Source: an uncultured Candidatus Saccharibacteria bacterium
GTDB taxonomy: Bacteria > Patescibacteriota > Minisyncoccia > Phycocordibacterales > UBA9973
Reading direction: 5' to 3'
Assembly: GCA_964646765.1 (NCBI GenBank)
Contig: CAZYIA010000004.1
Coordinates: 13,887-77,886 of the forward strand
DNA length: 64,000 nt
Of this stretch, positions 34,669 to 48,281 are shown piece by piece. Within the stretch, counting starts at the first letter, position 1. Each line of letters opens with the position of its first letter. The notes below the pieces were generated by a model. It did no database searches and was not told the origin of the DNA. It saw only the letters and a program-made list of their open reading frames with translations. The position numbers and the translations under genes are program-made.

Positions 34669-35106
34669 ATGAAAAGCTTGATCGTTGCAGGCCTGCTCAC
34701 CATGGCGGCGGGCCAATATGGCGCAAACGTCGTTTTTGCCCCCGGGTCTTCTGCGGGTGAGCCGATGAATGCGGGTCCCAGGGTAGCGGAGACGCGGCTG
34801 GAGCTGACCGGTGCAGAGCATCGATCCGCTGCGGCAAATCTGGCAATTGGTCAGGACATCGAGCGCGCGAGCACGCATTTCGAGGACGCCTTCGGCAAAG
34901 CCCCCCAGGTCGCAACAGCAATGGCCTACTCAGTCCAGGCGCACGGGCCCATCAAGGCGATTCTGTACGATGATCCCTCAGTGAAATCAGCGACAACCGG
35001 GTTTGCCGAATCATTGGGGCGTGGCCTGCGCGCACTGGCGGACGCCGTGGCACGGGACATGGCTGAAGGGACCAAGCAGTTGCATCCACAACCGGTCCAG
35101 GGCTAG
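34669..35106 (+). CDS. Secreted hypothetical protein
   Basis: The start was refined to the MKSLIVAGLLTMAAGQYGA signal peptide, with a GGAGAA RBS. The gene is 145 aa and convergent with the rhs gene. Confidence 0.45.
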   Translation: MKSLIVAGLLTMAAGQYGANVVFAPGSSAGEPMNAGPRVAETRLELTGAEHRSAAANLAIGQDIERASTHFEDAFGKAPQVATAMAYSVQAHGPIKAILYDDPSVKSATTGFAESLGRGLRALADAVARDMAEGTKQLHPQPVQG

Positions 35107-38100
35107 GCCGGCGTATTGCCGGCAGCATCCAGCACTACCGCACCAGGTGGCTCAGTCGCCATGCGGTTCGACGCCGGGGTGTAGCTGTAGGGCCCGGTCG
35201 AATCGATCAACCGGTTCCCGTTGCAGTCGTACGAAAGCAACTGCGTCGACTCGGAGATCAGACGATCCAGCGCGTCGTACTGGAACTGGCTTGCGTCCTT
35301 CTGAACGACGTTGCCGTTGGCGTCATAGGCGAAGGTCCGGTTCAACACGAATCCGGCCGTCCAGCCTGTCATCCGGCCCTGCAGGTCGTAGGTCTTCGAC
35401 TCGGTGATGCCATTGGCCCAGGTCTGGGCCTTGACCAGGCCGTCGGCGCGGTAGGTTCTGCCGGTGAGGACGTTGCTGCCGTTGGTCGAAACCGCGGTGA
35501 CGTTGCCGATGGCGTTGCGGGTATAGGCCACGATCCGGCCAGAGGGATAGGTGATGCTGGCGAGGTCGCCGGCTGGCGTCCAGGTGTAGGACGTGGTCTT
35601 GCTCACGCCACCTTGAACCCAAGTCTCGGATGAAACCCGGCCGAACCCTTCATAGATCCAGCTGCGCGTCCCCGCCTGATCCGTCACACTGCAAAGCTGG
35701 CCAACCTGGCAGGTATCGTAGGTCATGGCCACGTTCTCGGCCGGGTTCGGGTAGGAAACCGAGGTCACCCGGTTCAGGACGTCATAGGTGAACGTGGCGG
35801 CGATCCCGCGAGCGTCGGTCCGGGTCAACACGTTCCCGTTGGCGTCATGTGTGTAGGTGATGACACCGCGATCCGGGCCAGCCTCCTTCAGGACGTTACC
35901 AAGGTCGTCGATCTCATAGCCAGTGGCAGCATCGTTCGGTGTCACAACCCCTGCCAGGTTACCGCCAGGGTCGTAACCCCGATCGGTCATCCCCCCCAGG
36001 GCATCCACCGTACGGACGATACGATCCAGGGTGTCGACCTGATGCTGGGTGATGTTGCCGTTGGGGTCGGTGACCTGGGTGAGATTCCCCACCGCGTCGT
36101 GCACCAGTTGGGTAACCGAGCCGGCGGCATTGACCTGGCTTGGGTAGTTCCGGGCGTTGAAGGCCAGATCCATCTGCCGGACAACGGTGCCATCGGGATC
36201 TTTCGTGACATCCGACGTCCGGTTCCCCTTGAGGTCGTAGGCGTAGCTGACCTTGTTGCCCAGGCTATCGGTGACGCTGGCCAGGCGGTCTGCTACATCG
36301 TAGGTGTAGGTCAGGGTGCCACGGCCGGGGACGATGACCGAGAGCAGCCGGCCGGCGGCGTCCCACGCATAGGAATAGGTGCGCGCGCTGCCCACCACCG
36401 GTGTTTCGGTCACCGACGCAACCCTGCCCCGCAGGTTGTACGTGTACGCGGTGACCAGGCCGTTCGGATCGGTTTTACGGAGCAGGCGGCCGTTGGCGTC
36501 GTACTGGTCGAAGGTGGTGACGTGGCCAGCGGGGTTGGTGATGGAGGAGAGCATCTCGCAGCCGAAACCGGTAGTGCACTGCGGATAGGTAAGCTGGGTG
36601 GTGCGGCCGTTGGCGTCGGTGATCGCGCCAATCTGTCCCGCCGGTGCATAGGCCATCGCTACCGTTCTGGAAACCGCAGTGCCAGCCGGGGTGTAGCCAG
36701 ATACCTGGATTTGCACCGGGCGGTTCCGTTCGTCGTAGGCGATCTCGGTGCGCTTGACTGCGCCACCAAATACGCTCGGCTCTTCGATGACCGTCGGCAG
36801 CGCCAGGAAGTCGTCCAGATAGGCCCAGGTGGTAGTGCGCGCTTCTGGCGTTCCTGCGGCCTCCACCTTCTGGATCGGCCGGTTGACGGCGTCCCAGGCA
36901 TAGGTGGTCGTTCTGCCCTCCTCGTCTGTCTCGGAAATGAGGTTGTTGTTCGCATCGAAGCTCCGGAAACGCGTCTTGCCATCCATGCTATGGGTACGAG
37001 CGGCAAGAAGATTGACTCCGAGGTTGCGTGTGAAGGCGAGCGTTTCGGCATTGCCGGCAGCGTCCGTCACGGTGGCGCCGGCGCCGCTGAAGCCGAGACC
37101 GAAGGATTCCGTGCCGTCCGGCCTGGCAGTCGACACCGCCTGGCCCGTCGCAGCGTCGTAGGCATAGGTGCCAACCCGCTTGCCCGTCTCGTCGATGATG
37201 CCCGTCAGGGCATGAGGGTTGAGAGGATCTTCGTACAGATACCGGCGCACGCTGTTGTCGGGGAAGTAGACCTGCACCAGCCGGCGGCGACTGTCATACT
37301 GGTAGCGAATCCGGTGCCCGTCCGGCTGCCGAATCTCCAAAAGAATGGCGGCTCCCCATACCGGAGTCAGCTTGTGACCACCCGGGCCGAATTCGGCCAT
37401 GATCAGGCCATTTGACACCATGTCATAGCGGGTCCGGATTCCCGACGGACTGAATCGCTCGATGATGTTGCCGGGTGCGTTGTAGCGCTCGATCGAACCG
37501 TCCTGCCATGCACGCCTGTAGCCCAAGCCGTCACGCTTCAGCTTGAAGCGGACGTCGGCCGGGCAGGCGAAGGTGCCGTCGAGGTTGTCAGGGCAATGAA
37601 CGGTACGCCCACTGGATTCCCGGACCTGGACACCGTTGCCGTCGGGGGTGATTCGCACCGAGTAATCGAAGGTCCAGTTGTAGCCCATGTAACCGGAATT
37701 CGTAAAACTCTGGCTGTTGTACGTGCGCGCCATCGAAGACACACCCGGCGGCCCATTGAAATCGACCTCCCTTTGCACCTTGTTGCCTACCGCGGCGTCA
37801 ACCGGGTTGCCATAGCAAGTATCGCCCGCGCCGCTTTCGCCCCCGAGTTGCTTCACATTTTGAGCTGCGAGCACCGCAGACTGTTTCGAGACGACATCGC
37901 CAGAAGTCGGCCCCACCAGCACCATGCCAGGCGACACCGCTTGTGTCGGAAAAACGTGATAGTGGTAGGTAGCCCCGGCCGACAGACCGCAACCCCGGTT
38001 CTGCTCGTTCGACGTCCAGGTCTGGAGGCCAGCACCGGCGCTACCGGTCCAATATGCCCAGCAATTACTGATGTTTTGCGGACAAATCCTTCGCATCGCG

Positions 38101-38234
38101 CCATCTTTCAGGCAGGCAGTGAAGGCTTCTTCCGAGGTGTTGTAGTAGCTGTATAAATTGGCGATCGCCTGCGAGGGACTCAATCCTGTCAGGGCGGCCA
38201 TCGCGGCAAGAACGAAGGCGAGCGGGTGCATCAT
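35103..38234 (-). CDS. Rhs/YD-repeat protein, apparently truncated at the C-terminus (no RHS core PxxxxDPxGL and no toxin tip)
   Basis: It has a signal peptide and more than 25 YD repeats (YTYDANGN, YAYDLKGN, YEIDDLGN, and others) over 1043 aa. It ends ...YSYTPASNRMATEPPGAVVLDAAGNTPA without the conserved RHS core terminus or a downstream immunity gene. Confidence 0.85.
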   Translation of the reverse strand: MMHPLAFVLAAMAALTGLSPSQAIANLYSYYNTSEEAFTACLKDGAMRRICPQNISNCWAYWTGSAGAGLQTWTSNEQNRGCGLSAGATYHYHVFPTQAVSPGMVLVGPTSGDVVSKQSAVLAAQNVKQLGGESGAGDTCYGNPVDAAVGNKVQREVDFNGPPGVSSMARTYNSQSFTNSGYMGYNWTFDYSVRITPDGNGVQVRESSGRTVHCPDNLDGTFACPADVRFKLKRDGLGYRRAWQDGSIERYNAPGNIIERFSPSGIRTRYDMVSNGLIMAEFGPGGHKLTPVWGAAILLEIRQPDGHRIRYQYDSRRRLVQVYFPDNSVRRYLYEDPLNPHALTGIIDETGKRVGTYAYDAATGQAVSTARPDGTESFGLGFSGAGATVTDAAGNAETLAFTRNLGVNLLAARTHSMDGKTRFRSFDANNNLISETDEEGRTTTYAWDAVNRPIQKVEAAGTPEARTTTWAYLDDFLALPTVIEEPSVFGGAVKRTEIAYDERNRPVQIQVSGYTPAGTAVSRTVAMAYAPAGQIGAITDANGRTTQLTYPQCTTGFGCEMLSSITNPAGHVTTFDQYDANGRLLRKTDPNGLVTAYTYNLRGRVASVTETPVVGSARTYSYAWDAAGRLLSVIVPGRGTLTYTYDVADRLASVTDSLGNKVSYAYDLKGNRTSDVTKDPDGTVVRQMDLAFNARNYPSQVNAAGSVTQLVHDAVGNLTQVTDPNGNITQHQVDTLDRIVRTVDALGGMTDRGYDPGGNLAGVVTPNDAATGYEIDDLGNVLKEAGPDRGVITYTHDANGNVLTRTDARGIAATFTYDVLNRVTSVSYPNPAENVAMTYDTCQVGQLCSVTDQAGTRSWIYEGFGRVSSETWVQGGVSKTTSYTWTPAGDLASITYPSGRIVAYTRNAIGNVTAVSTNGSNVLTGRTYRADGLVKAQTWANGITESKTYDLQGRMTGWTAGFVLNRTFAYDANGNVVQKDASQFQYDALDRLISESTQLLSYDCNGNRLIDSTGPYSYTPASNRMATEPPGAVVLDAAGNTPA

Positions 38235-38332: not shown

Positions 38333-41300
38333 TCACGCCGGTCGACCATCCTCCCGCCGCTTTTCCTCAAATCCACGGTAGACCAGATCCAGCAACAGCG
38401 CCGCCATCGCCTTCTTGACGTGGCCCTTGCCCATCACCTGCTCCGACATGTTCTTGTGGTTCTCGTAAGCCGCCATCACGGCGTCCTCGAAGGCGTTCAT
38501 GAAGTCCGGGCTGTCGCCGAACTGGGCTTTCTGGTTGGCCGCCGCCTGCTGGGCCAGAACCTCCGACTCCATCATCTTGCCGGCGATGTGGTTCACGTAG
38601 TTGATGCGGTCCGCGTCCGTCAGCTCTTCGCCCTCAAAGAGATCGTTCATCTTTCCAACGATCTCCGACAGCAGGGCCTGCGCCGGATCCTGCGGCACGC
38701 GGCTGCCGATACCTGTCATCGGGTCGAGTGTGGCCGGCTCGTCGGTGGAATCGCCAAGGCCCAGCTTGCGCTTGCCCAGGTCGCGCAGGTTGTAGTGCGT
38801 CATCAGCACGGCCGACAGGTCAATCGCCTCGTGCCTGACCTCCTCGGCGATGAGCGGGGCGAGGTGCTTGTAGAAGAGGCTGCGCTTGAAGAGATCCGAA
38901 TCGCCGTAGTCGACGATCTGGGAGAGGAAGTCGTAGGCGCGCACGAAGCCGCCCAGGTCCTTTCGGAAGAGATCCAAAGCCTCGATGGCTTTCTTGTCCT
39001 TCTGCTGCTCGGCCTCCGTATAGCGCACACGGAAGCGTTCGACCGCGGGGCCGATCCTGGCCTGCAGGTCCTTCTGGGTGCCTTTCCTGTAATAGGCCTC
39101 GGCAAACCCATCCACCTCCTCCGGCAGGTAGATGCCCGTGGCATCGAGCTTGGCCTGCAGGTCGTGGATCAGGTTGGGATCGGATACGCCGGCGAGCTGC
39201 GCTGTGCGGTAATAGGTGCGGAAGGCAGCCAGGATCTCGTCGGGGTCGTTCACGAAATCGAGCACGAAGGTGTCGGTCTTGCCGGGGTAGATGCGGTTGA
39301 GCCGCGAGAGCGTCTGCACGGCCGAGACGCCGGCGAGCTTCTTGTCGACGTACATCGCCACCAGCAGGGGCTGGTCGAAACCCGTCTGGAACTTGTTGGC
39401 AACCAGCATGACCTGGTACTCGTCGGTGGCAAAGGCCTCGCGCATGTCACGACCCTTGAGGCCGGGGTTCATGTTTGACTCGTTGAATGGGTTCGGGCCG
39501 CTCTCCGGGTCGTTCACGTCGCCGGAGAAGGCCACCAGGGCGGCAACGTCCTTGTAGCCCTGCGTCTTGATGTACTTGTCCATGGCGAGCTTGTAGCGCA
39601 CCGCCTCCTTCCGTGAGGAGGTCACGACCATGGCCTTGGCCCGGCCATTCAGGCGCCACATCACGTTGGCCCGAAAGTGTTCGACGATCACCTGGACCTT
39701 CTGGGCGATGTTGTGCGGGTGCAGGCGCACCCAGTTCATCAGCGACTTCAGGGCCCGGTTCTGGTCGACCTGCTCATCGTCGTAGTCCTGCCCATCGTGC
39801 GCCAGCTTGAAGGCAAGCTTGTAGGGCGTGTAGTTCTTCAGCACGTCGAGGATGAAGCCCTCCTCGATGGCCTGCTGCATGGAATAGACGTGGAACGGCG
39901 CCGGCAAACCGTCCGGGTCGGGCCGCCCGAAAAGTTCGAGCGTCTTGGCCTTGGGCGTGGCGGTGAAGGCGAAGTAGCTGACGGTATCAGGTTGTACCTG
40001 ACCGGCCATCTCTGCTTCAAGGATTTCCTCCAGGTCTACCTCGGCGCCGTCCTCGATCTCCGCCAGCCGCTCGGCGGTCAGCACCTGCTTCAATTTCTTG
40101 GCGGCCGAGCCGGTCTGGGAGGTGTGCGCCTCGTCAGCGATCACGGCGAAGCGCCGGCCCTTGAGGGTGACCGTGTCCCGGATGGCGTCGAGCACGAACG
40201 GGAACGTCTGGATCGTCACGATGATGATGGGTGCGCGGTCGGCCAGCGCCTTCACCAACTGCGATGACTTGGAGCCCCCCTCGTCGGTGATCCTGACCAC
40301 CACGCCATGCTTGTGCTCGAACTGGTAGATCGCGTCCTGCAGCTGGGAGTCCAGCACCGTGCGGTCGGTGATGACGATGACCGAGTCGAAAAGCTTGATG
40401 TCCGCATCGTCATGCAGGGACGCCAGCTGGTGGGAGAGCCACGAGATGGAGTTGGTCTTGCCGGAGCCCGCGGAGTGCTGCACCAGGTACTTCATGCCCG
40501 GGCCTTCCACCCGTGCGGTCGCCACGAGCAATGTGACCGCCTCCCACTGGTGGAAGCGCGGGAAGATCAGGCCCTGCTTCTCGACTACGGTGCCATCGGG
40601 CTGGGTTTCCTGCTTCTTCTCCAGGTGGACGAAGCGGCCGAGGATGTCGAGCCAGGCGTCGCGATCCAGCACGCGCTCCCAGAGATAGGCCGTGCGATAG
40701 CCGTTGGGGTTGGGCGGGTTGCCCTTGCCGCCGTCGTTGCCCAGGTTGAACGGCAGGAAACGGGTCTCCTTGCCAGCGAGCTTCGTCGTCATCCACACCT
40801 CGTCTGTGGACACCGCGAAGTGCACAAGGGAGCGCCGCTTGAAGGCGAGCAGCGGCTCCTCGCGCTTGGTGACGGGATCCTTCACCGGCCGGCCATGCCG
40901 ATACTGGCTGATGGCGTCCTGCACGGACTGGGTGAAATCGGTCTTGAGTTCGAGGGTGGCGACCGGGATGCCGTTCACGAACACCACGAGGTCGATGCTG
41001 TTCTGGTTCGACAGGCAGTAATGCACCTGCCGCATGACACGCACCCGCACCCTGTCGTACCGGGCCAACGTTTCCGGGTTCATCTTCTGCGCCGGCTTGA
41101 ACTGGCACATGTCGAACCGGGCGTTCACGTTCTTGAAACCGTGGCGCAGTACCGAGAGCGAGCCTTCCCTGTCCATGACCTCGGCCAGACGCTTCAGCAC
41201 CGTCTTCTCGCTGGATCCGTTATGCAGCGTCTTCACCTTCGCCCATTCCTTGGGCTGGGTTTCCGACAACCAGGCGATGACGTCCTCCGGAAAGAGCGCC

Positions 41301-41407
41301 AGCTCGCGGTCATAGCCGGTGTCGTCAGGGGAATACAGCCAGCCGTGGGCTGCGAGATGGGCGCACACTTCCTGCTCGAAGTGGATTTCAGTGTGGAGTG
41401 CTGTCAT
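38333..41407 (-). CDS. hsdR: Type I restriction enzyme R subunit HsdR
   Basis: The 1024-aa ORF has an N-terminal nuclease domain and a DEAD/SF2 helicase core (GSGKT, DEAH-like VIADEAHTSQ, QTFPFV). It overlaps the upstream gene by 4 nt. Confidence 0.95.
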   Translation of the reverse strand: MTALHTEIHFEQEVCAHLAAHGWLYSPDDTGYDRELALFPEDVIAWLSETQPKEWAKVKTLHNGSSEKTVLKRLAEVMDREGSLSVLRHGFKNVNARFDMCQFKPAQKMNPETLARYDRVRVRVMRQVHYCLSNQNSIDLVVFVNGIPVATLELKTDFTQSVQDAISQYRHGRPVKDPVTKREEPLLAFKRRSLVHFAVSTDEVWMTTKLAGKETRFLPFNLGNDGGKGNPPNPNGYRTAYLWERVLDRDAWLDILGRFVHLEKKQETQPDGTVVEKQGLIFPRFHQWEAVTLLVATARVEGPGMKYLVQHSAGSGKTNSISWLSHQLASLHDDADIKLFDSVIVITDRTVLDSQLQDAIYQFEHKHGVVVRITDEGGSKSSQLVKALADRAPIIIVTIQTFPFVLDAIRDTVTLKGRRFAVIADEAHTSQTGSAAKKLKQVLTAERLAEIEDGAEVDLEEILEAEMAGQVQPDTVSYFAFTATPKAKTLELFGRPDPDGLPAPFHVYSMQQAIEEGFILDVLKNYTPYKLAFKLAHDGQDYDDEQVDQNRALKSLMNWVRLHPHNIAQKVQVIVEHFRANVMWRLNGRAKAMVVTSSRKEAVRYKLAMDKYIKTQGYKDVAALVAFSGDVNDPESGPNPFNESNMNPGLKGRDMREAFATDEYQVMLVANKFQTGFDQPLLVAMYVDKKLAGVSAVQTLSRLNRIYPGKTDTFVLDFVNDPDEILAAFRTYYRTAQLAGVSDPNLIHDLQAKLDATGIYLPEEVDGFAEAYYRKGTQKDLQARIGPAVERFRVRYTEAEQQKDKKAIEALDLFRKDLGGFVRAYDFLSQIVDYGDSDLFKRSLFYKHLAPLIAEEVRHEAIDLSAVLMTHYNLRDLGKRKLGLGDSTDEPATLDPMTGIGSRVPQDPAQALLSEIVGKMNDLFEGEELTDADRINYVNHIAGKMMESEVLAQQAAANQKAQFGDSPDFMNAFEDAVMAAYENHKNMSEQVMGKGHVKKAMAALLLDLVYRGFEEKRREDGRPA

Positions 41408-41847
41408 TTGCCGCAGGCCCTTCCGCCCTGTAGAGCACGGACGCTTTGCCCCTTCTCTTCCAGTTCGAGATCATCAAACCAAGGTTGCTCTGTGCGCGAC
41501 GAGTGCTTGTTTACCTTGGAAGGCTGAATTTGGCTCAACTGCAAGGAATTCGCTCGTTCAAGTGACTGCCTGTGCTCAGCCCTTTTGAAGGAGACGGCCA
41601 CCCATACGTCCGCCTCCTCATTTGACGGCCTAACTTCAACGCCAAGTTCAGTGAACCAGCCAACCAGGCGCCAGCGCATTTCACTAGGTGCATTCCGCAG
41701 CAATATGTTTGTCTTGTCGAGTTTCGCTCCGCTGCCGTTATAGGCTTGTCTGAAGGCCATCAATGCCAAGGTATGCCAATCGTGCAATGAGGTATGCGGA
41801 AATGTCGCAGTTTTAGCGACCATTTCGGTAAAGATATTTTCACGCAT
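41404..41847 (-). CDS. Hypothetical protein embedded in the Type I RM operon (147 aa)
   Basis: The start was refined to MRENIFTEMVAK with a GGGAGG RBS. It is translationally coupled to hsdR (ATGA-type overlap). No recognisable domain was found. Confidence 0.4.
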   Translation of the reverse strand: MRENIFTEMVAKTATFPHTSLHDWHTLALMAFRQAYNGSGAKLDKTNILLRNAPSEMRWRLVGWFTELGVEVRPSNEEADVWVAVSFKRAEHRQSLERANSLQLSQIQPSKVNKHSSRTEQPWFDDLELEEKGQSVRALQGGRACGK

Positions 41848-41928
41848 CACACCCCTCCCTTTCGTTAACTTTCCCCGCCACCGCCGCTGAGAAAAGCTCC
41901 GTGCTGAGCACATGCATTGTTGTCAACG

Positions 41929-43188
41929 CTACTTCTTGATCCAGGGAGACAAGGCAGCAGCGATTTCATCAGGCTTCGCCTTTTCCAACACCTTCTCCAG
42001 CAATTCATGCATCGGAGAAGCGGCATCGCCGCGTTTTAGAAGCATCTTGGAAGGATTGGCGCCGAACGTCCTGATCGCTGACTCTTGCAGCATCTTCAGG
42101 AGTTCAGGATCGCCGCCCATTTCATCCCGATAACCTGTAAACGCCATCGCTGCCGCTTCCTTGAAGGCATAGTCCTCACTTATTCGAAGCACATGGCCAT
42201 ACTGACGCGCCGCGAACCAGGTAAACCAGATAATTGGACCGGCCACCAGAAAGCGAACCAACACGGCCACGGGATCCGGGCTGCCCGCTTTCAGCAAAGG
42301 CAGTAATTCAGCCCAACCGATCCATACGAGCGCCACAATTCCAACGACGAATGCAACCGCCCAGACTCGCCAGGTCCTTTCCAGCTCTTTTCGCTTGTCG
42401 TGAAAGGAGCGCGCTAGGCCCACTTTGTTCGCATTCTCCAGGAGCCCTGCGATTTCATTGCGCCGGTCTTCGAATTCCTTGAATAAGGCATCCTTCTTGG
42501 CAACTGCAGCATCTAGCTCCTGAATCGCATTTGTGACCGAGGAGGCTTCGGCAGTGGCTGTGGATGCCGCACTCTCAGCATTGGTCTTTGCCGTGCCAGC
42601 TTCACGTTCATACCCCTCGATGGTAGTGAGGAGAGACTGGATAGCCTGTACCTTTTCGTTTGCCGTGTTTTGTTGTCCTTCGATCTGTTCGATCAAGTCT
42701 GCTGCGCTCGTCTCCGTCTGCTGGATAACATCCTTGATTTCTCCAGCACGAGAAATCCATTCCTGAGCCTCATTGATCCGGGCGGTCATGGTACGGCTGA
42801 ATTCGGGCGAAAGTCTTTCGGACTCAGGGTGAATCGGCAGCAGCTGGAGCAAGGCGCTTTTTAGCGACCAGAGCCAACTGCAAATGCTCGCAACATTACT
42901 GACGATTTGGCTGGGGTTACTCCAATGAGCGCTGAAAAACTGGTGTATGGCGTTTGGCACCGACTCGAAAGTGTTTCTGTACTGGCTCCAGACAACGCCA
43001 TCGATGTCTTCCGAACGACTAAGCGCCCCCATCAGGACGATTACTTCGTCGAAGGATTTTGTGATATCCGACACGTCCACCCCCAGCCCCTGGATATCCT
43101 CTTGCGGGGTCAGGTTGGGGGCTGCCTGATCCCAGAACCTTTTGGAACCCTCGACCTGGCTGATAGCGCTGGACAAATTGATGCTCAT
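41929..43188 (-). CDS. Coiled-coil protein with a 2-TM hairpin, embedded between hsdS and hsdR (candidate defence or abortive-infection effector)
   Basis: The 419-aa ORF has an N-terminal globular region and a long coiled-coil (AQEWISRAGEIKDVIQQTETSAADLIEQIEGQQNTANEKVQAIQ...). Two adjacent TM helices follow (WRVWAVAFVVGIVALVWIGW / VAVLVRFLVAGPIIWFTWFAARQY), then a short C-terminal domain. It sits 18 bp from the hsdS stop and 16 bp from the next ORF. Confidence 0.5.
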   Translation of the reverse strand: MSINLSSAISQVEGSKRFWDQAAPNLTPQEDIQGLGVDVSDITKSFDEVIVLMGALSRSEDIDGVVWSQYRNTFESVPNAIHQFFSAHWSNPSQIVSNVASICSWLWSLKSALLQLLPIHPESERLSPEFSRTMTARINEAQEWISRAGEIKDVIQQTETSAADLIEQIEGQQNTANEKVQAIQSLLTTIEGYEREAGTAKTNAESAASTATAEASSVTNAIQELDAAVAKKDALFKEFEDRRNEIAGLLENANKVGLARSFHDKRKELERTWRVWAVAFVVGIVALVWIGWAELLPLLKAGSPDPVAVLVRFLVAGPIIWFTWFAARQYGHVLRISEDYAFKEAAAMAFTGYRDEMGGDPELLKMLQESAIRTFGANPSKMLLKRGDAASPMHELLEKVLEKAKPDEIAAALSPWIKK

Positions 43189-43206
43189 ATCTCCCCCTGT
43201 TGTTTT

Positions 43207-44523
43207 TTATGCAGCGGCCTGATGTTGTGTCCGTACATCAATTTTTCCCGTGACCGCCGCTGAAATCAGCGCCGTGCGGTGCTCACGCATCAGGTCAATG
43301 GAGCGGCGGGATTTTTCGATTAGGGTATCGAGCTTGGCGGTTTCGCGGTCGATAAATGCAACGATGGCAGATTGTTCTTCTGATGGCGGACTCGTCATTA
43401 GGATGTTAGCTACATCATCTAGGCTCAACTGGATCTTTGTCCCACCATAGCCTTGTGCCTCGAGGTAGGTCTTCCCAACGAATGAGAGCGTCACGTAAGC
43501 AACCCAAGGCGACAGAAAGTACCTTCCTGCTAAGCGGGCCAGTGCAACGTGTTGGCTCACATATGCAGCTTCCATATTGTCAGGGACAACTGCTACTGAA
43601 CCTAGATAAGCGGTGATAGAAAACAGAACATCCCCAGGCAAGACTCTTGTCCTTTCTCCTTCCGTTCCTTCAGGAACCTCCACTCTTTGAATGTCTGCTA
43701 AATCAAGCTGAATAGTTTCACGGGTCAGGTTACCAATACGGATGAACAACGCACCATCATCTGCGTAGTGGTCAGCCCAGCCTCGTGAACCACTTGTCAG
43801 GAACAGCAAATCACGCTTGAGAGGTAAAACGCCCCAATGCGCTGGCACCCCCCCCAACCACTCCACCCCCGAATCCTTCATCGGAGCATCCGGATTCAAC
43901 CCCTTGGTCACCGCATGGGAGATGAGGGCCTGGCGCTTTTCCTGAAGCAGTTCGATCAGCTTTTCCTGCTTGGCGATCAGGGTGTCAAGCCTGGTGGTTT
44001 CGCGGTCGAGGAAGGTGGCGATGGCGGCCTGTTCTTCTGGATCAGGAAGTGAGAGTGAGATGTTTCGCATCTCCGAGTAGTTGGTGCTCCAAAGGTCGGC
44101 AACGATTCCTTTTCCGTATCGATAGAACTCTTCCTGGAACGGATAGCTTCGTAGCAGATGGTGAGCAAATCGCCCATTGATAGAGTCGTATGGCTGGAGA
44201 ACAGTATTGATTAGTGAAGCCGAACCATCCAACTCAGAGAGGCCAGATGAGCCTTTTCGGTCCGACCGGCTGTTGATGACAAAATCGCCAGAGCGAACCA
44301 ACTTCCGGTTGTCTCCATCATCCGTTTTTGCGGCCGTTTCAAGTTGTGGAACGACCCCGCTTTTGGTGACGGAAAGGGGCTGATAGTCCTTGTCACTGAC
44401 CTTCTCGCGGCGCTCGGAGAAGTAGTAGCCAAGCCGCTTCACGTCCCAATGCTCCGGCACCTCCCCGAGCCACTCCACCCCGGAGTCCTTGCAGGCCGGG
44501 TAGGGGCGATACTTAACGCTCAT
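43207..44523 (-). CDS. hsdS: Type I restriction-modification specificity subunit HsdS
   Basis: It has two target-recognition domains separated by conserved repeats (LDTLIAKQEKLIELLQEKRQALISHAVTKGL and LDTLIEKSRRSIDLMREHRTALISAAVTGKI). Confidence 0.9.
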   Translation of the reverse strand: MSVKYRPYPACKDSGVEWLGEVPEHWDVKRLGYYFSERREKVSDKDYQPLSVTKSGVVPQLETAAKTDDGDNRKLVRSGDFVINSRSDRKGSSGLSELDGSASLINTVLQPYDSINGRFAHHLLRSYPFQEEFYRYGKGIVADLWSTNYSEMRNISLSLPDPEEQAAIATFLDRETTRLDTLIAKQEKLIELLQEKRQALISHAVTKGLNPDAPMKDSGVEWLGGVPAHWGVLPLKRDLLFLTSGSRGWADHYADDGALFIRIGNLTRETIQLDLADIQRVEVPEGTEGERTRVLPGDVLFSITAYLGSVAVVPDNMEAAYVSQHVALARLAGRYFLSPWVAYVTLSFVGKTYLEAQGYGGTKIQLSLDDVANILMTSPPSEEQSAIVAFIDRETAKLDTLIEKSRRSIDLMREHRTALISAAVTGKIDVRTQHQAAA

Positions 44524-44783
44524 CGTCCTTTCCCCGAAAACGCTGAACCCGGCAGCACGTTGTATGGATTTTCTTCACGATATTCGGCCGGCTTGGCACC
44601 TACTGCATTCGCACTGGCCACCTTCAAACAGGCATCGCACAGTTTCACCAGCCCAAAGTTTGTTTCCGCTTGGTATAGCGGCTCTTGTGCAGAACAACGG
44701 GTACAAACGCCTGCGCCTATGGATGTAACGACTTTGCTCTCAAGGCGTATCTTTGCCGGTTTGCGCGTCGTGTTGGATGTCAC
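44520..44783 (-). CDS. Small CxxC...CxxC zinc-ribbon protein between hsdM and hsdS
   Basis: The 87-aa ORF contains CTRC...CDAC. It overlaps the hsdM stop and the hsdS start by 4 nt each (translational coupling). Confidence 0.4.
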
Positions 44784-46510
44784 GCCACCACCTCTTGCAG
44801 CAGGCCCATGATCTCGGTGGTCAGCGCTTTCAGATCGGAATCAATCTCCTCCAGCGGCCTCGGCGGCACGTACTTGTAGAAGTGCCGGTTGAAGGGGATT
44901 TCGTAGCCCACCTTGGTCTTGCCGTGATCGATCCAGGCATCCGGCACATGGGGCAGGACCTCGCACTCGAAGTAGGCCTGGATGTCGTCCTTCAGGGGCA
45001 CGTTCTCGGTGTCGCGCAGCGATGAGTCGGGTTGGGGCTGGCCTTTCTGCTTGCCCTTGGTGCCGATGACGACGTTGCCCTGCTCGTCGCGCAGGGGACG
45101 CTCGACGGTGATGGTGGAATAGCCGAAATCGGCGTTGTCGAATATCTTGCTGTGCTCGTTCTCTTCGAACGCGCCGTAGAGCTTCACGATGCGCTCGATG
45201 TCGGCGTCGCCCAGTTCCTTGCGCTTGGAGCCCAGGGACTTCCGCATCTTCTGGTAGAACTCGGCGGCATTGATGAGCTGGATCTTGCCCTGGCGCTCAG
45301 GCTTCTTGTGGTTGGTGACGATCCAGACGTAGGTCGAGATGCCGGTGTTGTAGAACATGTCGGTCGGCAGGGCGACGATGGTCTCCAGCCAGTCGTTCTC
45401 GATGATCCATTTGCGGATCTCCGACTCGCCCGACCCCGCGCCGCCGGTGAAAAGCGGCGAGCCGTTCAACACGATACCGATGCGGCTGCCGCCTTCGGCC
45501 TTCGGCCGCATCTTCGAGATGAGATGCAACAGGAACAGCAGACTGCCGTCGGACACACGCGGCAGACCGGGGCCGAAGCGCCCCTCGTAGCCCTTTTTCG
45601 TGTACTCGTCACGGATGAATTTCTCGATCTTCTTCCATTCCACGCCGAACGGCGGGTTGCTCAGACTGTAGTCGAAGAGCTTGCCGATGAGGCCGTCTTC
45701 GGAGAGCGTGTTGCCGTAGCGGATGTTGGAGATGTCCTGGCCCTTGATGAGCATGTCCGCCTTGCAGATGGCGTAGGACTCGGGGTTCATCTCCTGCCCG
45801 AACACTACCAGGCGGGCCTGGGGGTTGAGGCGTTGCAGGTGTTCCTCGGCCACCGACAGCATGCCGCCGGTGCCGGCGGTGGGATCGTACAGCGTGCGCA
45901 CCACGCCTGGCTGGGTCAATGCCTCGTCATCGCCGGCGAACAGAAGCTCCACCATCAGGCGGATGACCTCACGCGGAGTGAAGTGCTCCCCCGCCGTCTC
46001 GTTCGAGAGCTCGGCAAACTTGCGGATCAGCTCCTCGAACATGGCGCCCATGTGGGCGTTGCTCACCACGTTGGGATGCAGATCGATCGCCGCAAACTTG
46101 CCGGCCACCATGAACAACAGGTTGTCCTGGTCAAGCCGGTCAATGATGGCCTGAAAGTTGAACCGCTCGAACACGTCGCGGACGTTGTCCGAGAACGAGC
46201 CAATGTAGTTCGTGAGGTTGGCGCGGACATTGGACGGATCGCCCAATGCTGCAGCGAACGTCATCGGCGAGGTGTTGTAGAACTGGTAGCCGGATTTCTT
46301 GATCAGAAAACGATCCAGAGCCGCTTCAGGCAGGTCCTTCTTCGCCTGGTACTCCTTCAGCACCGCCGGCTTCGTCGCCTCCAGCACGCAGTCCAGCCGC
46401 CTCAGAACGGTGAACGGCAGGATCACACGGCCGTACTCGGATTGTTTGAAGTTGCCCCTGAGCAGGTCGGCAACCGACCAGATCAGGGATGAAGTTGCGT
46501 TTGTGTTCAT
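44780..46510 (-). CDS. hsdM: Type I restriction-modification N6-adenine DNA methyltransferase HsdM
   Basis: It has an N-terminal HsdM_N domain, a SAM-binding motif and the catalytic NPPFG motif. Confidence 0.95.
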
Positions 46511-46860: not shown

Positions 46861-47214
46861 TCATCCTCTCGCCACCAGGACAACTCCGAGCATGATCATC
46901 CCCACCCCACCCCAGCGCATTATCGACACTGGTTCATGGAGGATCCAGGCACTTGCCACGGTTGTCGCGACGAAACCAAGCGCGATGAAGGGATAGGCGA
47001 AGGAAAGCTCTGCCCGTGACAGCGCCACGATCCAGAGTCCGAGTGCTGAAACATGGAGAGTCCCGCCGAGCCAGATCCACCCGTTGCCGAGTGCTGCCGC
47101 CAGCATGCCCTGTCCGATCGCATGGCCGGCCAGGGCATTGGCTCCGAGTTTCAGGACGAAGTGTGCGAGGGAGGAACAGGCCACGCTCGCCAGGATGATA
47201 AGAATGACCGGCAT
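46861..47214 (-). CDS. Small 4-TM transporter of the DMT/SMR superfamily (EamA/ArnE-like)
   Basis: The 117-aa ORF has four hydrophobic helices and an LSRAELSFAYPF motif. Confidence 0.55.
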   Translation of the reverse strand: MPVILIILASVACSSLAHFVLKLGANALAGHAIGQGMLAAALGNGWIWLGGTLHVSALGLWIVALSRAELSFAYPFIALGFVATTVASAWILHEPVSIMRWGGVGMIMLGVVLVARG

Positions 47215-47684: not shown

Positions 47685-48281
47685 TTACCAACCTTTCTTC
47701 AAAAAAGCAGCCGGGACATTTCCCCAAGCCGGGTTCCACTGCAGGATCGGGTTTCGCCACATATTTGCGGCGAGCCATTTCTCGGCCCGATCAACCAGGT
47801 TTGTGGTCTCCTGGTTCGCAGCGGTCCTGGCCAGTGCGGCGCCGCATTTGCGACGACGTATCCAGGCGAGCGCTTCTTGCGAATCACTATAGACCGGGAC
47901 CTCCAGACCGCGCCTGACGCAAAGCGCCAAGGCATGGCACACGGCCAGGAAGTCCCCGATTTCCTGCGTTCCTTCGGGGAGCGGACCGACCCGGAAAATT
48001 TCTCGTCCGGTCGACGTCACTACCCCTCGATACTCCAGCGTTCCGGAAAACCCGGAACATGAAGCCCCCACAGAATAGGAGAACAGAGTAGGCTGCGTCT
48101 CGCCGCGTGGATCAAGAGAATCCAAGGCACGACCGGCTCCGTATGAAGCCAACGCGAGGTTCTCATCCTGGAAGGACTTGAACCGGGCGCCACTGTAGCC
48201 CTTCACCTGGCTTTCGCATTCCTTCCAGGAGCGATAAATTCCCGGAGTCCTGCCTGCCCAGACAACATAGAATGCCACCAC
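47685..48281 (-). CDS. RNase H-like protein with N-terminal RNA/DNA hybrid-binding domain (possibly catalytically degenerate)
   Basis: The N-terminus FYVVWAGRTPGIYRSWKECESQVKGYSGARFKSFQDENLALASY matches the HBD/Cauli_VI motif. The C-terminus has RNase H-like motifs (VYSDSQEALAWI, TAANQ...LVDRAEKWL). The first catalytic DG is replaced (YSVGASCSG). Confidence 0.5.
   Translation of the reverse strand: MVAFYVVWAGRTPGIYRSWKECESQVKGYSGARFKSFQDENLALASYGAGRALDSLDPRGETQPTLFSYSVGASCSGFSGTLEYRGVVTSTGREIFRVGPLPEGTQEIGDFLAVCHALALCVRRGLEVPVYSDSQEALAWIRRRKCGAALARTAANQETTNLVDRAEKWLAANMWRNPILQWNPAWGNVPAAFLKKGW

Follow-up and report, generated by a model that had tools for sequence, protein, structure and literature searches.

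A candidate abortive-infection membrane protein encoded within a Type I restriction–modification operon of an uncultured Saccharibacteria bacterium

Contig CAZYIA010000004.1 of an uncultured Candidatus Saccharibacteria bacterium carries, in the 64,000-nucleotide (nt) stretch analysed here (the window), a Type I restriction–modification (R-M) operon with an additional gene between hsdS and hsdR. This gene, here called orf419, is an open reading frame (ORF) of 419 codons on the minus strand (41929..43188), as given by the ORF list and its translation. It starts with ATG and ends with a TAG stop codon at 41929-41931; the plus-strand frame of the same interval is riddled with stops. A Shine–Dalgarno-like GGGGGAG, read from the sequence at 43191..43197 (minus strand), lies 2 nt upstream of the ATG, inside the 18 nt that separate the hsdS stop codon from the start of orf419. 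Independent gene callers report the coding sequence on 16 public contigs, and because 92 clusters of homologues also have a near-constant length, orf419 is a real gene. A preliminary description of this DNA had placed a 419-amino-acid (aa) protein here, at the site usually taken by PrrC-like genes; both the reading frame, on the minus strand, and the location in a Type I R-M operon, after hsdS and before hsdR, are confirmed.

All genes of the operon lie on the minus strand. It opens with hsdM (44780..46510; 576 aa; Pfam N6_Mtase 1.9e-59 and HsdM_N 1.7e-25, PADLOC MTase_I 1.5e-276), followed by hsdS directly upstream of orf419 (43207..44523; 438 aa; PADLOC Specificity_I 2.8e-146, Pfam Methylase_S). 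The last gene is hsdR (38333..41407; 1024 aa), which matches Pfam HSDR_N, SWI2_SNF2, ResIII and T1R_D3-like models and PADLOC REase_I (1.2e-31). Between orf419 and hsdR lies orf147 (41404..41847; 147 aa), which probably starts at 41847, has its own Shine–Dalgarno sequence (AGGGAGGGG) and ends in a TGA that overlaps the hsdR ATG (ATGA). A consensus scan found no internal sigma-70-like promoter in the operon and no excess of terminator-like sites, so orf419 is most simply regarded as part of a single operon. The cassette of hsdS, orf419 and orf147 (41404-44523) has a GC content of 52-54%, against 60.7% in hsdM, 62.8% in hsdR and a window average of 59%. This difference suggests that the middle of the R-M operon was exchanged as a block by recombination.

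The encoded protein has a modular, largely helical architecture, for which a structure was predicted with AlphaFold2 (AF2) from an alignment of 81 family sequences (mean predicted local distance difference test score, pLDDT, 78.8). Residues 1-125 (42814..43188, minus strand) form a variable, cytoplasmic helical bundle according to the model and their low conservation, and may act as a sensor; the helices span residues 6-124, with block pLDDT values of 78-94, and no fold match was found for this domain. Residues 128-268 (42385..42807) form a heptad coiled coil that runs into a conserved pre-transmembrane (pre-TM) helix (LENANKVGLARSF..KRKEL). The hydrophobic power at period 3.5 is 121 in this region, compared with 9.4 +/- 9.8 in shuffled sequences, and none of 1000 shuffles reaches 121. 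With this strong periodicity and no hydrophobic signal at period 3.6, the region is a coiled coil and not merely an amphipathic helix.

Two predicted TM helices follow, TM1 at residues 272-293 (42310..42375) and TM2 at residues 307-327 (42208..42270), joined by a short periplasmic loop (residues 294-306, 42271..42309) with a family median of 13 aa. The Kyte–Doolittle profile (19-residue window) peaks at 2.34 around residues 272-300 and at 1.92 around residues 305-327, and stays at or below 1.33 over the first 250 window starts (residues 1-268); the positions of the TM segments are kept across the family. Residues 328-380 (42049..42207), a cytoplasmic juxtamembrane helix, are the most conserved segment of the protein (RQYG..R..EDYAFKEAAA.AF.GYR.EM....LK.L.ESAI..F..NP), and are followed by a less conserved C-terminal tail (residues 381-419, 41932..42048; pLDDT 45-55). 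The preliminary description had proposed a globular N-terminal region of about 120 aa, a heptad-rich coiled coil, two closely spaced TM helices and a conserved-looking tail in a protein without an NTPase motif. Each of these parts is found: the AF2 bundle, the coiled-coil periodicity and the hydropathy peaks coincide with them, residues 328-380 are the most conserved part of the family in the 81 sequences, and neither Walker A/B nor HEPN-like motifs occur in the protein (a Walker-A-like pattern is present in one of the 81 members).

The topology can be predicted from the distribution of charge. Over the 81 members, lysine and arginine residues average 4.9 ahead of TM1, 1.0 within the loop and 3.0 beyond TM2, and because positive residues are few in the loop and frequent on either side of it, both the N-terminal and the C-terminal soluble parts are assigned to the cytoplasm. 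The AF2 model has two extended helices, a very long one (residues 128-300) that continues from the coiled coil through TM1, and another (residues 306-357) containing TM2 and the conserved motif. Modelled alone, the C-terminal module folds as a helical hairpin (H2-69, H75-126), and the post-TM helix is accordingly predicted to pair with the pre-TM helix below the membrane. About 85% of the protein lies on the cytoplasmic side. With this share, a length of 419 aa and neighbours that include neither an endolysin nor lysis genes, a phage holin was considered and rejected.

The family is large and unevenly conserved. A word-indexed homologue search of 5.8 billion proteins returned the 92 clusters, nearly all of 411-425 aa, all named 'hypothetical' and all devoid of Pfam domains. 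A profile of the C-terminal module, searched exhaustively against 1.84 billion representatives of 50%-identity clusters, has 3,782 matches at E<=1e-3, 1,903 at E<=1e-10 and 164 at E<=1e-30. The best 150 are mostly about 400-450 aa long with the module at the C-terminus, and the shorter ones resemble fragments. In distant members, defined by less than 40% overall identity to the query, identity to the query is 20% in the N-domain, 22% in the coiled coil, 41% in the pre-TM helix, 55% in TM2, 62% in the post-TM segment (entropy 0.86 bits) and 31% in the C-terminal tail. The N-domain and coiled coil thus vary fast, while the two-TM hairpin and the juxtamembrane helix with its EDYAFKEA motif are strongly kept. 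Fourteen residues are invariant in the 81 sequences (A259, F280, P318, W321, W324, F325, E338, D339, Y340, F342, K343, A345, Y353 and P379), and W276, G283 and R312 are conserved in at least 96% of them. In TM1, the conserved positions are W276, F280, G283, I284 and L287; in TM2, R312, P318, W321, W324 and F325 are conserved or invariant. Conserved intramembrane residues in both helices argue for a functional hairpin instead of a passive anchor.

No Pfam, NCBIfam or PADLOC model covers the family, which is unannotated in every library tested. Scans of these three libraries with the 419-aa protein, the 81 members, 50 divergent members and the bridging sequences returned coiled-coil noise and a marginal DUF2207_C match only. 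In PADLOC-DB v2.0, the 419-aa protein has weak coiled-coil matches only (LmuB, JetC and BrxC; E>=1.9e-4, residues ~68-267). The homologues from E. coli, phages and plasmids match no PADLOC model at E<=1e-4 and, at E<=10, give only weak coiled-coil-type matches (JetC, ZorA, LmuB and DruC; E>=6e-4). A sequence search of the PDB with the family profile likewise yielded coiled-coil matches only. Payne et al., who described the HEC systems, Rousset et al. and a survey of bacteriophage exclusion (BREX) systems give the family at most a 'hypothetical' listing, and no paper was found that cites the E. coli accessions.

In its genomic contexts, the family recurs inside or beside modification-based defence systems, namely Type I R-M (in at least two independent arrangements), Type ISP, Type III-like and BREX systems. 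The order seen in the window, with a family member between hsdS and hsdR, recurs at four further loci (L005, L007, L009 and L073). These relatives come from Thiobacillus (73% identity), Methylococcaceae and Acidiphilium, with one further relative of 61% identity; the Acidiphilium operon also carries a GmrSD gene. In a Nitrospirota genome, the gene order is hsdM, a Schlafen/AlbA_2 gene, the family member, hsdS and hsdR, and the Type I genes are only distantly related to those of the window. Elsewhere a family member stands between a Type ISP enzyme and HEC-01A/HEC-01B, in an island flanked by AlpA and transposase genes, or, in a Saccharibacteria genome, between a DNA methylase (N6_N4_Mtase) and a ResIII helicase that form a Type III-like mod/res pair. 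Further copies come after a PDC-S06 AAA_13 ATPase or a NERD-UvrD candidate, and still others either are integrase-adjacent at the edges of islands, plasmids or integrative and conjugative elements (ICEs) or lie in RepC or insertion-sequence contexts.

A sample of one genome per species, comprising 49 loci from many phyla, was used to look for a constant partner. All-against-all clustering of the neighbouring ORFs at these loci found no conserved partner gene. A conserved two-gene system is rejected on this basis, the sole recurrent neighbours being Type I R-M genes. Among the 149 nearest neighbours, the most frequent Pfam families are ResIII (5), Phage_integrase (5), HSDR_N (4), N6_Mtase (3), Methylase_S (3) and AAA_15/21 (2). 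The adjacent orf147 (a 147/169-aa ORF) was also considered as a partner of orf419 and is ruled out; it is an orphan with just two clusters among the 5.8 billion proteins, has no family hit and is absent from the loci of the relatives of orf419. A role as an R-M accessory or regulator specific to this lineage is possible.

The same protein family is built into BREX systems. On plasmid p3ABAYE of Acinetobacter baumannii AYE and on 23 other Acinetobacter plasmids (24 in total), the order is brxC, pglX, family member, pglZ and brxL. The BREX-1 copy, WP_001030448.1, lies between pglX and pglZ (NC_010404.1 58529-59899; 4206-5576 in locus L080) with overlapping stops and starts, and its membership is confirmed by 38.6 bits across the whole module. 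Such tight coupling, the position of orf419 within an operon where internal promoters and terminators are not in excess, and a long coiled coil of the kind typical of scaffolds could point to a non-toxic accessory, a coiled-coil membrane tether that places or regulates the R-M or BREX complex at the inner membrane, the site of phage DNA entry. This explanation is nevertheless very unlikely. The family is mostly found without R-M or BREX, it is associated with at least five mechanistically different systems and not with one, and canonical Type I and BREX systems are generally known to function without it. A tether would, moreover, need neither conserved intramembrane residues nor a juxtamembrane motif.

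Prophages provide a second type of location. A 463-aa homologue from E. coli and Klebsiella (28% identity across 256 aa, E 5e-19; module-profile score 85 bits) is encoded between the replication endonuclease gene gpA and the portal gene gpQ of P2-like prophages. The copy of E. coli HS is ECHS_RS04510 (WP_001003256.1, NC_009800.1 926128-927519; 5001-6392 in locus L078), and strain HS is among the 13 of 5,426 complete E. coli genomes in which the homologue occurs. The gpA–gpQ interval of P2 is a defence hotspot, in which P2 itself carries old and tin (Rousset et al. 2022, PMC9122126). WP_001583354 is listed in the hotspot table as 'hypothetical' (Rousset et al. 2022, PMC9122126); it is the Klebsiella plasmid copy, with DNA at least 99% identical to that of the E. 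coli copies. A Providencia phage, plasmids and ICEs are further mobile carriers. Carriage by prophages, plasmids and ICEs, together with the predicted location in the inner membrane, would also suit superinfection exclusion, in which a protein of the mobile element blocks the entry of phage DNA at the inner membrane without killing the cell. The topology speaks against this. With a median loop of 13 aa, the protein has barely any periplasmic exposure and is about 85% cytoplasmic, and its large, variable cytoplasmic domain fits intracellular sensing better. Superinfection exclusion is accordingly given little probability.

The recurrence in modification-based defence systems and in the P2 hotspot supports the idea of a defence-associated two-TM effector. 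A defence role for the family is somewhat more likely than not. More specifically, comparative analysis of sequences gives an even chance that the orf419 product is a stand-alone, membrane-acting abortive-infection (Abi) protein that protects against phages and is carried as cargo in a Type I R-M operon. In such a protein, the variable N-domain and the coiled coil would detect a cue from the phage, or keep the protein as an inactive oligomer. Upon activation, the pre-TM and post-TM helices, which pair with each other, would rearrange and transmit the signal to the conserved hairpins, and these would then permeabilise or depolarise the inner membrane. Alternatively, the protein may co-operate with a phage holin and bring about premature lysis, as reported for AbiZ. 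In either case, the infected cell would die or arrest before phage progeny mature. The position in the R-M operon would ensure co-expression and co-transfer, and would make the protein a second line against phages that escape restriction.

The cue itself could be the state of the R-M system. In the prr locus, prrC occupies the interval between hsdS and hsdR, and a guard of the PrrC type would use its N-domain and coiled coil to contact the methyltransferase/specificity complex of the R-M or BREX system, the membrane effector firing once a phage anti-restriction protein (Ocr, ArdA or Stp-like) has disabled it. The guard model thus narrows down the trigger in the mechanism just described. It is consistent with the location of orf419 in the prrC slot, with the repeated embedding of family members beside methyltransferase or specificity genes of Type I, ISP, III-like and BREX systems, and with the fact that the clade at least 50% identical to the 419-aa protein is mostly R-M-embedded. 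Ocr inhibits Type I R-M and BREX alike, and the nesting of the family in both makes the guard model attractive. Against it, most family members lack an R-M or BREX neighbour within 10 kilobases (kb), and the copies in the P2 hotspot, on plasmids and beside integrases stand alone. In addition, the N-domain has no recognisable fold, and its contact with an R-M complex is purely putative. A guard of the PrrC type is therefore considered unlikely. PARIS has been described as a sensor of Ocr (PMC9122126). Extended to a large class of single-protein membrane 'guards', nested by preference in Type I, ISP and III R-M and in BREX systems, whose hypervariable N-domain and coiled coil would sense phage anti-restriction proteins or a disabled methyltransferase complex and trigger a pore of the two-TM hairpin and EDYAFK motif, with orf419 as its founding example, the model becomes a shade less likely again. 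By analogy, and with the same reserve, such a class would be the membrane-effector counterpart of PrrC and PARIS.

Several observations weigh against a membrane-acting Abi protein. The defence role of the family would be guilt by association, with R-M adjacency given as raw counts. The 136 neighbour families for the most part occur only once, and many loci have unremarkable or housekeeping neighbours, such as a copy between holC and recG. No PADLOC model matches the family, the AbiZ model included; the link to AbiZ is a published HHblits result that the hidden Markov model (HMM) searches performed here do not reproduce, and comparison with the experimentally validated DS-34B family yields a probability of just 22%, over the TM hairpin alone. 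The full-length AF2 model has a predicted template modelling score of just 0.36, and monomer models cannot reveal a pore. Some of these points would suit a protein outside defence, a membrane protein of mobile elements or of housekeeping, concerned with membrane stress or remodelling or with plasmid or prophage maintenance and present in variable regions only incidentally: some copies do lie among core genes, and no known defence model matches. A non-defence role is nonetheless quite improbable, given the repeated independent insertion into defence operons and the P2 gpA–gpQ hotspot, the patchy distribution across many phyla on mobile DNA, and the presence of the gene in only the 13 E. coli genomes.

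Around these loci, further features were noted. The hsdM–hsdS spacer of the window measures 256 nt and contains an uncalled 87-aa ORF with a GTG start (44520-44783, minus strand) that overlaps both genes; gene callers skipped it on identical contigs, and its sole match is a marginal FYVE zinc-finger (E 0.022). Directly downstream of hsdR lies the gene for an Rhs protein of 1043 aa (35103-38234, minus strand; DUF6531 and 10 RHS repeats), so the R-M operon abuts a polymorphic-toxin locus. Upstream of the operon, a 198-aa ORF (47685-48281, minus strand) encodes an RNase H1 N-terminal (Cauli_VI) domain (E 1.9e-19) and adjoins a short EamA-like ORF of 117 aa (46861-47214). In two gammaproteobacterial lineages (L011 9983-11218; L038 and L062, Crenothrix), a family member is flanked by the gene for the large subunit of ribonucleotide reductase and one for a TSCPD-domain protein; in Crenothrix, it is accompanied by a DUF3800 gene and an antitoxin-like gene. 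The interval between the ribonucleotide reductase and TSCPD genes may be an insertion hotspot.

If an anti-phage function holds true, several thousand sequence clusters without a Pfam, NCBIfam or PADLOC model would join the anti-phage repertoire, and the nuclease and ATPase genes nested in R-M and BREX operons would gain a membrane-acting counterpart. AbiZ, one of the few Abi proteins still without a recognised domain, would be widened from a lactococcal curiosity to a broad superfamily. Tractable models are available in ECHS_RS04510 of E. coli HS, from the gpA–gpQ hotspot, and in the copies that clinical Acinetobacter plasmids carry inside BREX.

With PrrC and RloC, anticodon nucleases embedded in Type I (and III) R-M loci, the 419-aa protein shares the slot between hsdS and hsdR and the concept of an Abi module that rides in, and possibly guards, an R-M system. 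Unlike PrrC and RloC, it is a predicted membrane protein without an ABC-ATPase, Walker motifs or a nuclease domain; the AAA_13 and PrrC models detect nothing beyond coiled-coil noise in it, and the PADLOC PrrC model matches a neighbour of one relative but not the family members. Independent defence genes such as the GmrSD-like TgvAB/BrxU and HEC are known to nest in operons of Type I R-M, BREX or Hma systems (PMC11411939; Payne et al. 2024, bioRxiv 10.1101/2024.01.29.577857). The family shares this pattern of nesting, and one relative even adjoins HEC-01A/B, but the established examples are nucleases, ATPases or RNases, with no membrane protein described as yet. The word 'membrane' does not occur in Payne et al. 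2024 (bioRxiv 10.1101/2024.01.29.577857), nor does 'transmembrane' in the 2026 BREX survey (PMC12839542).

The preliminary description had likened the protein to SLATT-like two-TM effectors of conflict systems. The notion of a two-TM effector in the PrrC slot agrees with the comparative genomics, but the SLATT label is not supported. No SLATT model matches the 419-aa protein at E<=10, and SLATT is not among the 25 most-matched Pfam families of the 81 members (E<=1) or those of the 50 divergent members. The two share a two-TM hairpin with an adjoining cytoplasmic helical region, a generic feature that is insufficient for membership, and a predicted part in conflict systems as effectors that disrupt membranes. 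SLATT proteins of CBASS-, SMODS- and SLOG-type systems differ in that orf419 is stand-alone, has its own putative sensor and has no nucleotide-signalling partners nearby; SMODS, SLOG, cyclase and TIR genes occur neither among the recurrent neighbours nor, for the 149 nearest neighbours, in the 25 leading Pfam families. The resemblance to SLATT is only topological.

A validated two-TM protein with a similar outline is DS-34B (WP_000377448.1) of the E. coli system DS-34, which also has a coiled coil, a TM hairpin and a conserved tail and is borne on prophages or plasmids. HHpred links it to DUF6161 at 96% (DefensePredictor, PMC13092281). Unlike the product of orf419, DS-34B has 323 aa, another tail motif and a CI-like repressor as its partner. 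Homology between the two is rejected: hmmsearch finds no match, and hhalign aligns the TM hairpins alone. On the Sinorhizobium sp. M14 plasmid (NZ_KU140623.1 27998-28393), a two-TM module similar to that of DS-34B (E 6e-5) is part of a gene annotated as 'TIR domain-containing protein', which suggests that such hairpins are exchangeable modules, combined with various sensor or enzymatic heads.

The nearest named family is suggested to be AbiZ/DUF6161. WP_135638427.1 was predicted to be a novel defence gene, with AbiZ ('DUF6161 domain-containing protein') as its best HHblits match (98.8%, 37% of length; DefensePredictor, PMC13092281). This protein of 453 aa consists of an N-domain, a coiled coil, GASLFETFKQRKEEL, two TM helices and QYSRERNFQEEYAFKSA, and matches the module profile of the family in register (29.4 bits, E ~3e-11 in a single comparison); a Hymenobacter plasmid protein is matched by both WP_135638427.1 and the 419-aa protein. 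Direct searches are negative. Pfam DUF6161 (PF19658) matches neither the 419-aa protein (E<=10) nor 10 bridging or divergent members (E<=1) and is not among the top families of the 81 members, the PADLOC AbiZ model has no match in the 419-aa protein or tested relatives at E<=10, and a tblastn search of plasmids returned no protein annotated as DUF6161 or AbiZ among its matches. As a side observation, the Bdr repeat protein WP_012539718.1 of Borrelia recurrentis plasmid pl53 (850-1386 in locus L079) is listed as an AbiZ match in Table S1 of DefensePredictor; this is probably a spurious coiled-coil/TM match and calls for caution with census numbers for AbiZ.

AbiZ is reported to make the membrane more permeable, in concert with the phage holin, and to cause premature lysis (reviews including PMC13064643). 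It has no recognised domain and no PDB or Foldseek match (PMC13064643), and the 419-aa protein likewise lacks both kinds of match. Like AbiZ from plasmid pTR2030 of Lactococcus lactis, orf419 is a single gene whose product has two predicted TM helices and a cytoplasmic tail, and the family is found on mobile DNA. Durmaz and Klaenhammer are said to have placed abiZ, in 2007, near the LlaI R-M system on pTR2030. Unlike AbiZ, the family is longer (~410-450 aa), with an N-terminal bundle of ~125 aa and a coiled coil of ~140 aa; both fall outside the shared module, as judged from the length of the DUF6161 model (223) and the matched region. It also has its own invariant EDYAFKEA motif and is mainly proteobacterial, or Gram-negative, and not found chiefly in Bacillota. 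By analogy, a mode of action based on membrane permeabilisation and premature lysis would suit the architecture of the 419-aa protein, and the family is best regarded as a putative new member of the AbiZ-like membrane Abi proteins, a long-form variant that likewise consists of a single gene.

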